This document shows, piece by piece, positions 3,580-21,701 of a stretch of 64,000 nucleotides of DNA; within the stretch, counting starts at the first letter, position 1; each line of letters starts with the position of its first letter. Below the pieces are notes generated by a model. It was given only the letters and a program-made list of their open reading frames with translations. It searched no databases and was not told the origin of the DNA. The stretch is from Clostridium sp. 26_22 (GTDB lineage: Bacteria; Bacillota; Clostridia; TANB77; CAG-508). The translations under genes and the position numbers were made by a program. Location: NCBI GenBank assembly GCA_001916005.1, contig MNRP01000056.1:182-64181 (forward strand), given 5' to 3'.

Positions 3580-4157
3580 CTATTTTCCTCCTGTACAATC
3601 TCCACCCTGAAATGGTCGATAAGCGTTATTTTTTTCATAATTAGTGTACTTACTTGTGTTTATTCCCATTCTTCTAATTTCACGTTTGTATTGTCTATAA
3701 GCCATCTCATCTTCCCTTGAATCAACAGATGAAGACCAATTTTCAGGAATAAAAAAGTCTGGTTGCAGAACAATACTACCATGGTACCTTTTGGAACTAA
3801 TTCCAAGTTTTACTTCATTACATTCATTTGGCTTTTTTAATCTATCATCCAATTTGTATCTTCCCTTTAATTCTATATAAAGGTGTCCTCCTGATTTGCA
3901 ATAATCTGTATCTTCAAACCGAATATATAAATCAAATTTGCTATTTTGAACTTTCAGTATCTTCTTGGTTATGCTCCGCTTTGGAATTACAATTTTTACT
4001 TTGTAATTTGGACCATTGTAAAAAACAATTACTTTGATATCACCCTCTGTTGAAACACCACATTCATCATTTTTGGAACAATCTTCTAATTGCAAAATTT
4101 CTTTTTGGGTTTTAGTTTGTTTTTTTGAGTTTTCTGACCGTTTCTTTTTTTAGACAT
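3580..4157 (-). CDS. hypothetical basic protein (about 192 aa if a 1-nt frameshift near 4095-4100 is corrected)
   Basis: ATG at 4157 has a GGAGG RBS and reads MSKKRNGQKTQKNKLKPKKKFCN then stops. The 171-aa ORF continues in another frame from 4095. No family recognised. Confidence 0.5.
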
Positions 4158-4241
4158 TGCTACCTCCTTAAAGTCATTTGGAGGTTTGAAACCTCCAAGT
4201 TATTTGTTTTACTTTTTGGTTTCTAAAATAATTTACTTATA
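4158..4241 (-). promoter_or_regulatory. conserved 5' leader, copy 1 (four-segment SD/anti-SD switch-like element)
   Basis: Near-identical to 21275-21350. Contains hairpin UUGGAGG-UUUCAAA-CCUCCAA (4178-4198) and upstream GAAACCAAAAAG (4212-4223). Confidence 0.55.
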
Positions 4242-4242
4242 G

Positions 4243-4271
4243 AGCATATCATAATTTTATGTAAATTGCAA
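4243..4271 (-). promoter_or_regulatory. putative sigma-A promoter TTGCAA-17-TATGCT
   Basis: Hexamers read on the minus strand, with TG at the extended -10 position. Confidence 0.4.
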
Positions 4272-19579: not shown

Positions 19580-20536
19580 CTAACTTTCTTTTATATTCCA
19601 CTTTGGTGGATACATATATTCTATTTTATCAGTTTTTGCAACATATTTCTTTTTGATTTTTGTACGATTTGATTTTAATTCTGGTACTGCCTGTCTACAA
19701 TATTTATCTAGTTCACAAAATATATTTTGACAATCTATTAATTGTAAAGGTCTATTACCTATTGGCTTAAAATCTAAACCCAATCTTTTAAATTCCTTTT
19801 CTTGATTTTTACACATATATTTTATAATTTCTTCTTTTGATAATTCACCTGTACTTATAAAACACTTTTTTATTCCTCTTTCTGACCCAGGTCCTGCTAC
19901 CGTAAATTCCATTTCACTAAAATCTACAACATTACTATAATTTATATCTGTAATTAATTGATATGCCATAAAATTTCCAATAAGAGGATATGATTTTATT
20001 ATATTAAATGCTTCTTCCATATTTTTACTGTTAATTATTTTTGTATCAATATGGTCTTTTAAAAACATTTTTTCCAATAAGGCTAAATGATTTTCATGTT
20101 TTCTATCATAGCCAAATGCTTTATTTGCACAACTTATATATGCGTCATTATAAATTTTTTGTCCATTATTTATTGCTTTTTCTAGTATTTGTGAATATTT
20201 ATTAAAATCAAAACTTGATAAAGTTATATCTCCTATTTCATTTTCTAATAATTCCCATGTTGATTCTTTATTAAATAATTTAAATAATATTATTCTAAAA
20301 ATCATATCTGCATCTGTATATTTTTTACCATTATAAATCACATTTTTTAATAAGTATTGGCTTACTCTATCATTTACTCTATAGCTATTGCAAAACTTAA
20401 ATTCTTGCAAAATTTCATCTTTTGTCCATGGTGCTGGTTCTCCATTTTTCTTTTTTAGAAAAATATTTTGCCTTTCACATGCAAAATACCAATATAGATT
20501 GTATATTTTTTCTCTTTTTATTATTTTTTCTTCCAA
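19580..20536 (-). CDS. 5-hmdU DNA kinase-like / DNA base hypermodification family protein (helical domain)
   Basis: 318 aa. N-terminal signature YWYFACERQNIFLKKKNGEPAPWTKDEILQEFKFCNSYRVNDRVSQYL matches my recollection of the 5-HMUDK/aGPT-Pplase-type family. TTG start with AAGGAGA RBS. Confidence 0.55.
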   Translation of the reverse strand: MEEKIIKREKIYNLYWYFACERQNIFLKKKNGEPAPWTKDEILQEFKFCNSYRVNDRVSQYLLKNVIYNGKKYTDADMIFRIILFKLFNKESTWELLENEIGDITLSSFDFNKYSQILEKAINNGQKIYNDAYISCANKAFGYDRKHENHLALLEKMFLKDHIDTKIINSKNMEEAFNIIKSYPLIGNFMAYQLITDINYSNVVDFSEMEFTVAGPGSERGIKKCFISTGELSKEEIIKYMCKNQEKEFKRLGLDFKPIGNRPLQLIDCQNIFCELDKYCRQAVPELKSNRTKIKKKYVAKTDKIEYMYPPKWNIKES

Positions 20537-20668: not shown

Positions 20669-21274
20669 TTAAATTGCTTTTAATATGGTTTCAAAAGCTT
20701 TCTTTCTTGGTCCTATGTTATCTTTTTCTTCTGGACTAAGTTCAGAAAGTGTTTTGTCATAACCTTTTGCTTTGAAATATTGGTCAAATCCAAATTCTCT
20801 TTGACCTGCTTTCTGGCACATATCTCCATCTAATTTTTCTTCTACATATATAGTTCTTTCATTATCTATAAAAGCCATTGCAGTAACCCAATGTGCAGTA
20901 GTATCTTTATTTTCACTCTCTCCCATAAGGTCTAAAATTATAGGATATAGTTCACTTGGTTTGTCTACGTTTACATTTGAACCTGGACAAAGTTTTTCTA
21001 GACAACGTTTGGTATAAACACCTGGATATCCATCTAAGGCATCTATCTCTATTCCAGAATCTTCAGCAATTACTGGCATTTTTAATTTTTCTGCCCAATA
21101 TTTTGCTTTTATTGTTGCATTTTCCAAAAATGTTTTTCCTGTTTCCTCTGCTTGAGGTAGATTTGTTGCTTCTGGTATGTCTTTTAAGCAAAGTATTTTT
21201 ATATTATCTGGTGCCATCCTTTGCATTTCTTCTGCTTTTTTTTGGTTACAACTTGCGAAAACTATTTGTTTCAT
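20669..21274 (-). CDS. Ham1/RdgB family non-canonical purine NTP pyrophosphatase, divergent
   Basis: 201 aa. Conserved EETGKTFLENA, AEDSGIEIDAL.GYPGVY and FGFDQYF. Several canonical residues differ (SCNQKK for TGNxGK, GPRKKA for SHRxxA). Confidence 0.75.
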   Translation of the reverse strand: MKQIVFASCNQKKAEEMQRMAPDNIKILCLKDIPEATNLPQAEETGKTFLENATIKAKYWAEKLKMPVIAEDSGIEIDALDGYPGVYTKRCLEKLCPGSNVNVDKPSELYPIILDLMGESENKDTTAHWVTAMAFIDNERTIYVEEKLDGDMCQKAGQREFGFDQYFKAKGYDKTLSELSPEEKDNIGPRKKAFETILKAI

Positions 21275-21350
21275 TTTTTCCTCCTTAAATTTTCTTGGAG
21301 GTTTAAAACCTCCAAGTTTTGTACTTTTTGGTTTTTAAAACTAAATACAT
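21275..21350 (-). promoter_or_regulatory. conserved 5' leader, copy 2 (four-segment SD/anti-SD switch-like element)
   Basis: Hairpin CUUGGAGG-UUUUAAA-CCUCCAAG (21294-21316) and upstream AAAACCAAAAAG (21325-21336). Near-identical to 4158-4241. Confidence 0.55.
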
Positions 21351-21355
21351 TTCAT

Positions 21356-21384
21356 ATTATAGCATTTTTTTATGTCAATATCAA
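21356..21384 (-). promoter_or_regulatory. putative sigma-A promoter TTGATA-17-(TGc)TATAAT
   Basis: Hexamers read on the minus strand. Confidence 0.5.
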
Positions 21385-21399
21385 GATTAAATATAATTT

Positions 21400-21701
21400 C
21401 TATCTCCATATCTCCCCATTTATATGTTTTGTTAATGCCATTATAAATGCATTTTTTGTTAAATCTATTCTTGTTATTTCATCTCTTGTTAAGAAACTTA
21501 TTCCACCCTTTCCTTTTCCAGATTCTTTTATATTAAATATTTTATCCATAACTTTTCCAAGTTCTGTTTCTTTTATTTCATTTATGTATTTATCTGGAAT
21601 AGGAAATCCTTGGCTTGTTCCTACACTTTGAAATCCTTTTGCATCTTCTATAACTACCGCATTTATATCAATCCATTCTCCCAAAAGATTAATATTTTCA
21701 T
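21400..21701 (-). CDS. hypothetical protein (about 100 aa), either frameshifted in a T4 run near 21685-21690 or starting at the TTG at 21684
   Basis: ATG at 21701 with AGGAGA RBS reads MKILIFWENGLI then stops. The 94-aa ORF continues in another frame. No family recognised. Confidence 0.4.

Follow-up and report, generated by a model that had tools for sequence, protein, structure and literature searches.

The leader RNA that precedes the Ham1 gene in the window, by which we mean the whole 64,000-nt stretch of DNA analyzed here, belongs to a covariation-supported family of leaders that we propose to be cis-acting translational switches made solely of four mutually complementary segments, a reading to which we assign a probability of roughly 0.6. 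A 5′ untranslated region of about 75–85 nt would house all four switch segments. Segment 4 would be the Shine–Dalgarno sequence (SD, AAGGAGG), segment 3 (CCUCCAAG) the anti-SD, segment 2 (CUUGGAGG plus four variable nucleotides) the anti-anti-SD, and segment 1 (four variable nucleotides followed by CC-NNN-AAG) the partner of segment 2. In one arrangement, fold B, helices 1:2 and 3:4 would bury the SD and translation would be OFF; in the other, fold A, hairpin 2:3 would leave segment 1 and the SD free, translation would be ON, and fold B would be excluded.

Fold B would be the first to form during transcription and is also the predicted ground state of most members, which would make OFF the default state. 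Once segment 1 is occupied or removed, segment 2 would capture segment 3 and the SD would become exposed; the trigger could be binding by a protein or a small RNA, or processing of the 5′ end within the A-rich spacer. In its overall logic the leader corresponds to a four-segment translational attenuator that lacks a leader peptide, and we infer the switching itself from this architecture.

Architecture of the two leaders in the window

Inspection of the sequence located the four segments upstream of Ham1 (copy 2) on the minus strand at 21280–21335, from segment 1 to the SD, where the sequence-only reading of the same DNA had placed them. Segment 1 (AAAACCAAAAAG, read as AAAACC-AAA-AAG; 21324–21335), assigned from its sequence and its covariation with segment 2, would act as an anti-anti-anti-SD by pairing with that segment. 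A 7-nt spacer (UACAAAA; 21317–21323), the putative loop of helix 1:2, leads to segment 2 (CUUGGAGGUUUU, CUU-GGA-GGUUUU; 21305–21316), the anti-anti-SD, whose partner would be either segment 1 or segment 3. Segment 3 (AAACCUCCAAG; 21294–21304) carries the anti-SD CCUCC and could pair with segment 2, forming the hairpin, or with the SD (UUAAGGAGG, segment 4; 21280–21288), which lies 5 nt 5′ of the ATG start codon (21272–21274). All of these features are on the minus strand, and some 20 nt of AU-rich RNA separate the promoter from segment 1.

Copy 1, at 4163–4223 on the minus strand, likewise contains all four segments, as had been claimed: segment 1 (GAAACCAAAAAG; 4212–4223), a 12-nt spacer (4200–4211), segment 2 (CUUGGAGGUUUC; 4188–4199), segment 3 (AAACCUCCAAA; 4177–4187) and the SD (UUUAAGGAGG; 4163–4172), followed by the ATG at 4155–4157. 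The covariance model described below matches it at 4161–4229(−) with 78.3 bits. Both of the base differences that had been reported between the copies are present, namely G (copy 1) versus A (copy 2) at the first base of segment 1 and C versus U at the last base of segment 2. The 1–2 spacer differs as reported (12 versus 7 nt); across the family, spacers of 3 to 21 nt occur, without sequence conservation. A 22-nt pattern describing the hairpin occurs at these two sites only in the 64 kb window, with 0.00 expected from 100 shuffles, and the 11-mer of segment 1 also occurs at two sites only, with 0.30 expected. A chance origin of the two copies is excluded.

The identities given to the two downstream genes were also correct. 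The gene behind copy 2 (20669–21274, minus strand) encodes a 201-aa Ham1/RdgB-type non-canonical purine NTP pyrophosphatase (Pfam PF01725, E = 1.2e-44), and homologs of its product carry the same annotation. The gene behind copy 1 (3580–4157, minus strand) encodes a lysine-rich orphan protein and is disrupted by the loss of 1 nt in an A-rich run near 4095–4100, such that the frame opening with the ATG at 4157 stops after 23 codons and the remainder is left as an open reading frame at 3580–4095. Intact 192-aa orthologs with 99% identity exist (P0121), and the identical frameshift is found in two independent metagenome contigs (L073 and L110). The protein has no Pfam and no PHROGs family; its AlphaFold2 model (mean pLDDT 66) shows a β-sandwich core with disordered tails and gave no PDB match better than E = 0.05.

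The window has a G+C content of 25%, nearly all of its genes are on the minus strand, and they include those for AddA, a penicillin-binding protein, PTS enzyme I, asparagine synthase (AsnB) and a P-type ATPase. A phage origin, suggested by the Ham1 gene together with a 5-hmdU-kinase-like gene, was rejected: no phage DNA match was obtained and the genes are chromosomal, all of which indicates that the window is bacterial chromosome and not phage. The kinase-like gene, directly downstream of Ham1 (19580–20536, minus strand), encodes a 318-aa protein with a 5-hmdU DNA kinase helical domain (PF18723, E = 6e-108) and lies near genes for a histidine phosphatase and a DUF84 protein. The DUF84/NTPase_I-T gene is situated just upstream of the Ham1 leader (21400–21700, minus strand) and is seemingly truncated or frameshifted: its ATG at 21700 is followed by a stop after 12 codons, and a 94-aa open reading frame covers only positions 76–161 of the Pfam profile. 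Ham1, 5-hmdU kinase, histidine phosphatase and DUF84 may together form a nucleotide-sanitizing or nucleotide-modifying cluster.

A leader family in gut Clostridia

When one genome per species was scanned for the exact pattern, the hairpin turned up in 22 records, 20 of which are gut metagenome-assembled genomes (MAGs) labelled Clostridia or Clostridium. All 20 carry the whole cassette, from the −35 element to the SD, before at least seven different genes. A metagenome scan in which only UUGGAGG, CCUCCAA and AGGAGG were fixed yielded at least 120 loci, and about 75 low-GC loci of the same family are among the matches listed. A covariance model (R1) built on the 1:2 + 3:4 structure then matched gut Clostridia MAGs and metagenomes at 93 places with E ≤ 1.3e-4; 52 of these sequences are distinct. 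Every one of the 93 keeps a fixed orientation and a fixed distance to the SD and start codon, and the distance from SD to ATG is maintained in all members. Searching with the lysine-rich protein sequence alone retrieved three orthologs (70, 64 and 56% identity) that carry the full leader with unchanged cores; a fourth, located inside an operon, is without the leader.

The leader stands upstream of 21 unrelated protein clusters, mostly orphan families. As judged by spot checks, leader-controlled loci are single genes followed by genes on the opposite strand or by gaps. Their products are 36–348 aa in length and are mostly soluble orphan proteins, with housekeeping enzymes in addition; only Ham1, a 155-aa cytidylyltransferase-like (CoaD-like) protein and a DUF6440 lipoprotein match Pfam, and none of ten orphan families scanned matches PHROGs. 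Within the window there is no gathering-level match to Rfam 15, and 16 variant loci gave tRNAs only; the best sub-threshold matches are spurious (for example rli40, with 22 bits against a threshold of 100), which rules out a known Rfam 15 family. Literature searches by sequence string and by keyword returned no description of the leader, and IMG/VR contains no family member. Based on these comparisons, we regard the leader as a real, previously uncatalogued family of uncultured gut Clostridia. It adds to the cis-regulatory RNAs a family absent from Rfam 15, and its hosts are abundant, although uncultured, inhabitants of the human and animal gut.

Several individual loci deserve separate mention. 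Several leader-controlled genes have tRNA genes at a distance of 0.1–1 kb (L005 4811–5082, L034 11838–11911, L126 1766–1836, L056 4969–5041), and a phage-type integrase adjoins the Ham1 ortholog of L150; some of the single-gene leader loci may thus be at island insertion sites. In L133 (463–529), segments 1 and 2 are complementary over 9 uninterrupted nucleotides (CCUCUAAAA:UUUUGGAGG) rather than over 6+3, so that the wiring differs while the competitive logic would be unchanged. The same search pattern also caught a separate leader-like motif in five high-GC soil metagenome contigs (L026, L027, L031, L097 and L099), consisting of UUGGAGGG-loop-CCCUCCAA, a second anti-SD-like element (ACCUCCC) and AGGAGG; in four of the five contigs AGGAGG is followed by CGACCGCGUAAC.

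Covariation of segments 1 and 2

From the complementarity of the two segments, kept by the one compensatory difference between the copies, the sequence-only reading had proposed a 1:2 helix of 6 and 3 bp flanking a 3×3 internal loop. Compensatory changes across relatives strongly support this helix, and the G:C versus A:U exchange in the window is one instance of a family-wide covariation. The four segment 2 bases 3′ of GGAGG are variable, and the four segment 1 bases 5′ of CC change in step with them, resulting in eight sequence classes. Most members, including copy 1, are GAAACC:GGUUUC, and copy 2 is AAAACC:GGUUUU. The remaining classes are UUACCC or UUGCCC:GGGUAA (L034, L042, L059), AAGACC:GGUCUU (L036, L139), AAGGCC:GGCCUU (L116), UGCACC:GGUGCA (L058), UUAACC:GGUUAA (L028) and AAGCU:GGCUU (L053, L084).

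In our alignment A4, 99.7% of the cells of the upper helix are paired, and in four of the six pairs both partners have changed. Double-change cells in helix 1:2 number 35, compared with 5.2 ± 1.9 in shuffles (none of 500 reaching 35), and the covariation score of the helix is 0.185 versus 0.02–0.07 when the partners are slid against each other. Because A4 was fitted to the structure, alignment-free tests were also run. In the additional homologs, on which the sequence-only reading had made the proposed pairing depend, a 6-nt Watson–Crick/G·U complement of GG plus the four variable bases (GG+x4) is present within 47 nt upstream in 53 of 56 leaders. When x was permuted among leaders (5000 permutations), the count averaged 34.9 and never exceeded 45; shuffling the upstream sequence gave 12.4 ± 2.9. 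In four classes (GGGUAA, GGUCUU, GGCCUU and GGUGCA), the segment 2 bases that co-vary with segment 1 fall within the hairpin 2:3 loop and are not tracked by changes in segment 3 (as in GGAGG-GUAAAA-CCUCC), and the covariation is therefore specific to helix 1:2 and not to the hairpin.

The remainder of segment 1 shows a different pattern of variation. CC and AAG are conserved, and the middle bases between them vary freely (AAA, AAU, AAC, GAA, CGA, UGC, UAC), as would be expected of an internal loop. The terminal AAG is found as AGG, GAG or GGG, all of which keep G·U pairing with CUU, and also as AAA, which is paired with UUU in L050 and faces CUU in L108; L058 has UUU in segment 2 but still AAG in segment 1, where a longer run of A precedes it. 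In 45 of 52 members the C of CUU has a segment 1 G as its partner, and in 13 of 52 it faces a mismatch (A) in hairpin 2:3. We read these patterns as indicating that 1:2 is helical in its lower part as well. Related genes may have leaders of different classes: GAAACC or UUACCC in the MTLLKIF family, GAAACC, AAGACC or AAGGCC in the TTDLTGYAIR family, and likewise different classes among genes of the CoaD-like family, from which it follows that compensation occurred in place. Together, the comparisons show that helix 1:2 is under selection. A possible fifth pairing, between a U-rich tract 5′ of segment 1 and the A-rich spacer, was rejected as reflecting base composition only (permutation p = 0.58).

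The position of the co-varying bases raises the question of an H-type pseudoknot, in which hairpin 2:3 stays intact, the four variable segment 1 bases pair with its loop and no switching takes place; the resulting compact 5′ structure could serve, for example, as a stabilizer or as a ribosome standby site. The four co-varying segment 2 bases are indeed directly 3′ of GGAGG and, in several classes, in the hairpin loop, so that such pairing would account for the four co-varying pairs. Zero-nt junctions combined with return loops of 2–4 nt are sterically possible. The model nevertheless leaves the invariant CC and AAG unexplained, since the bases complementary to both are inside the hairpin stem, and it offers no reason why AAG should change mainly to pairing-compatible variants. 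It would also require a 4-bp helix to fit into loops of 6–7 nt, in canonical members these loop bases extend the hairpin stem (UUU:AAA), and the predicted energies favor the full 1:2 helix. We consider the pseudoknot improbable.

The 23-bp palindrome formed by segments 2 and 3 could alternatively be an element of the DNA or of the opposite strand, that is, a repressor operator comparable to CIRCE or an intrinsic terminator of plus-strand transcription. It is a perfect inverted repeat between promoter and SD, and on the plus strand, where the hairpin is accompanied by a T-run, a terminator scanner calls both copies terminator-like, a call that results from the complement of spacer and segment 1 being T-rich. 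However, the sizeable open reading frames around either copy, over several kb, all lie on the minus strand, leaving no evident plus-strand gene to terminate there. Symmetry is lost in variants of the GGAGG-GUAAAA-CCUCC kind, in which the complementarity to segment 1, 3–21 nt away, is kept; as regards an operator, the dyad symmetry of the inner arms is lost in several classes, and that of the core was fixed by the search. The G·U pairs of helix 1:2, which would become A·C mismatches on the opposite strand, identify the mRNA strand as the folded, functional one, and the constant orientation and distance to SD and ATG in all 93 matches also speak against a DNA-level element. We judge this explanation to be very improbable and retain the four-segment RNA switch as the preferred reading.

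Predicted competition between the two folds

The cores of helices 2:3 and 3:4 (GGAGG/CCUCC/GGAGG) are invariant, in part because the search patterns fixed them, and the covariation evidence bears on helix 1:2 only. The argument that both are used in vivo is an architectural one: a leader that only masks its SD would need neither segment 1 nor segment 2, from which we infer that the alternative pairings of segments 2 and 3 are both functional.

The sequence-only reading had described 2:3 as the obvious hairpin, but the predicted ground state of most members is the SD-sequestered fold. Its proposal of an alternative 1:2 + 3:4 fold fared better. RNAalifold returns fold B as the consensus structure, and energy minimization predicts it for most members; helix 3:4 has a median predicted probability of 0.94 at 37 °C. 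Over 59 non-redundant leaders the predicted ΔΔG (B−A) averages −2.9 kcal/mol (standard deviation 3.1, range −6.9 to +5.4), a spread which indicates that the members are not tuned to one balance point. By these predictions fold B is competitive or preferred, and the two folds are shown to be close in energy. For copy 1 the minimum-energy fold is predicted to be the SD-sequestered OFF fold (P = 0.99), whereas copy 2 is predicted to be ON (P = 0.98), with the SD-sequestered fold within 0.5–2 kcal/mol of the hairpin fold. The change from G:C to A:U thus also shifts the predicted balance, and the strength of helix 1:2 would act as a gene-specific bias, from OFF in copy 1 to ON in copy 2.

The same predictions bear on a static leader, in which the two hairpins of fold B alone form and act as a fixed damper of translation, as a stabilizer of the mRNA, or as both, the complementarity of segments 2 and 3 arising only because segment 2, like the SD, resembles GGAGG. 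Such a leader would agree with fold B as minimum-energy and consensus structure, and with the outcome of searches that found neither a trigger nor a conserved ligand pocket. A pure damper, however, needs only segments 3 and 4, and fold B has no need for segment 2 to be a perfect complement of segment 3 over 8–11 nt. The CUU:AAG part of 2:3, which has no counterpart in the SD, and the GGA of the internal loop are left unexplained, and some members, including copy 2 of the window, are predicted to be in fold A. For these reasons we regard the static leader as unlikely and prefer the four-segment switch.

Search for a trigger

The association of copy 2 with Ham1 had led to the suggestion of non-canonical purine nucleotides as ligands. 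This link was not borne out: the leader precedes 21 unrelated families, and the four-segment leader is absent from all eight Ham1 orthologs checked (63–82% identity), and a purine-nucleotide ligand is therefore not indicated. The 21 protein clusters also contain no coherent metabolic gene set pointing to one metabolite. No aptamer-like conserved nucleotides were found at unpaired or junction positions, where the bases of the internal loop and spacer vary; outside the helices, conservation is confined to the U-rich run before segment 1 and the flank of the SD. An SD-masking expression platform is present as a prediction, in that 3:4 forms in most minimum-energy folds and in the consensus. An RNA thermometer was rejected, the median predicted unpaired fraction of the SD being 0.02–0.11 from 15 to 50 °C with populations that barely change.

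In the ermC leader, the four-segment topology is identical to that described here. A translational attenuation mechanism of the erm/cat type, in which a ribosome stalled on a short leader peptide over segment 1 frees segment 2, is suggested by this identity and by copy 2, where an open reading frame starting with AUG (MYLVLKTKKYKTWRF) reads through segments 1 and 2. No conserved leader peptide was found: of 55 leaders, only 12 contain an open reading frame that starts with ATG and crosses segment 1, and these 12 lack an SD and share neither frame, length nor peptide; copy 1 has no such frame at all. In the absence of a conserved leader frame the ermC mechanism is not general, and we think it highly improbable as an explanation of the family.

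A search of 815 kb of sequence for RNA complementary to segment 1 returned only incidental matches inside coding regions, and neither a partner RNA nor a partner protein emerged from the searches made. The best remaining candidates for the trigger of the four-segment switch would be a trans-acting protein or small RNA that binds segment 1, or cleavage or 5′ trimming that removes it. After trimming, the RNA would begin with hairpin 2:3, which is very stable and would stand beside a strong SD.

Comparison with known regulatory RNAs

The proposed switch follows a principle already realized in ermC, in the thiM expression platform and in the trp attenuator; its embodiment and the candidate regulon are new. 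The ermC and cat leaders also oppose 1:2 + 3:4, in which the SD is sequestered, to 2:3, in which it is free, and in both cases occupation of segment 1 would turn translation on. The present family differs in that it has neither a conserved leader peptide nor an upstream SD, that the genes are not resistance genes, and that the core segments are copies of the SD and anti-SD (GGAGG/CCUCC/GGAGG). With trp-type attenuators it shares nested alternative helices (1:2, 2:3, 3:4) in which the helix transcribed first decides the fate of the last, but the output would be SD masking and not a terminator, as there is no U-tract after 3:4 and no leader peptide.

In the Escherichia coli thiM TPP riboswitch, competition between an anti-SD and an anti-anti-SD similarly sets the accessibility of the SD (PMC2018614). 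Unlike riboswitches of the thiM type, the leader family has no aptamer, no Rfam match and no coherent metabolic gene set, and its unpaired positions are variable. The rpoS leader (with its sRNAs DsrA and RprA) and the hok and aapA1 mRNAs are born inert through intramolecular sequestration of the SD and are activated once the upstream inhibitory strand is occupied or removed, as we propose here. The hok and aapA1 type I toxin mRNAs rely on metastable anti-SD hairpins, whereas the products of the leader-controlled genes are not small toxins, and no counterpart of rpoS-type sRNA partners or hok-type processing sites is known for the family. RNA thermometers and the cspA thermosensor resemble it in that helices alone regulate, without conserved loops, but differ in temperature response, the predicted populations of the leader being nearly flat over the range given above. 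As an unusually clean natural translational switch built from nested SD and anti-SD copies, the leader would be easy to test and to reuse as a design.

Promoter box and candidate regulon

Copy 2 is preceded by a promoter on the minus strand (21356–21384) with the −35 element TTGATA (21379–21384), a 17-bp spacer and a TG-extended −10 element TATAAT (21356–21361), and transcription is predicted to start at about 21348–21352. No other site in the region resembles a promoter as closely (11 of 12 positions, with TG), and this one also fits the pattern of the family. Inside the spacer lies an 11-bp box (TTGACATAAAA; 21368–21378). The promoter of copy 1 (4243–4271, minus strand) has the −35 element TTGCAA (4266–4271), the box TTTACATAAAA (4255–4265) and the TG-extended −10 element TATGCT (4243–4248).

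The −35/box/−10 arrangement is conserved before nearly all family members (for example L056 and L002), and the box, at a constant position in the 17-bp promoter spacer, is either TTTTATGTAAA or its exact reverse complement, TTTACATAAAA. It is probably a protein-binding site, and the combination of a fixed position with either orientation points to a dedicated DNA-binding regulator. As the leader travels with a σA-type promoter and its spacer box, the genes are probably locked at both transcription and translation.

Leader and promoter box group about twenty orphan families, Ham1 and the CoaD-like enzyme into one candidate regulon, which provides a handle on genes that are otherwise without annotation. 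More tentatively, and with less than even confidence, we suggest that the leader is a protein-free-looking RNA switch that operates regulon-wide, that it responds to one trans-acting factor or processing event, and that it is wired to the box promoter to give a two-layer lock on about 20 families, mostly orphan and present as single-gene loci. If so, finding the factor would open an unknown physiological program in uncultured low-GC gut Clostridia.

The box has a distribution of its own among the eight Ham1 orthologs mentioned above. It is kept upstream of four of them (L150/L151, L154/L155, L157 and L158; 63–77% identity), and in L157 it is located upstream of the −35 element and not in the spacer. 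In all four, a short palindrome of the type ATGTC-N3–5-GACAT (imperfect in L157) replaces the four-segment leader, about 10 nt after the −10 element.
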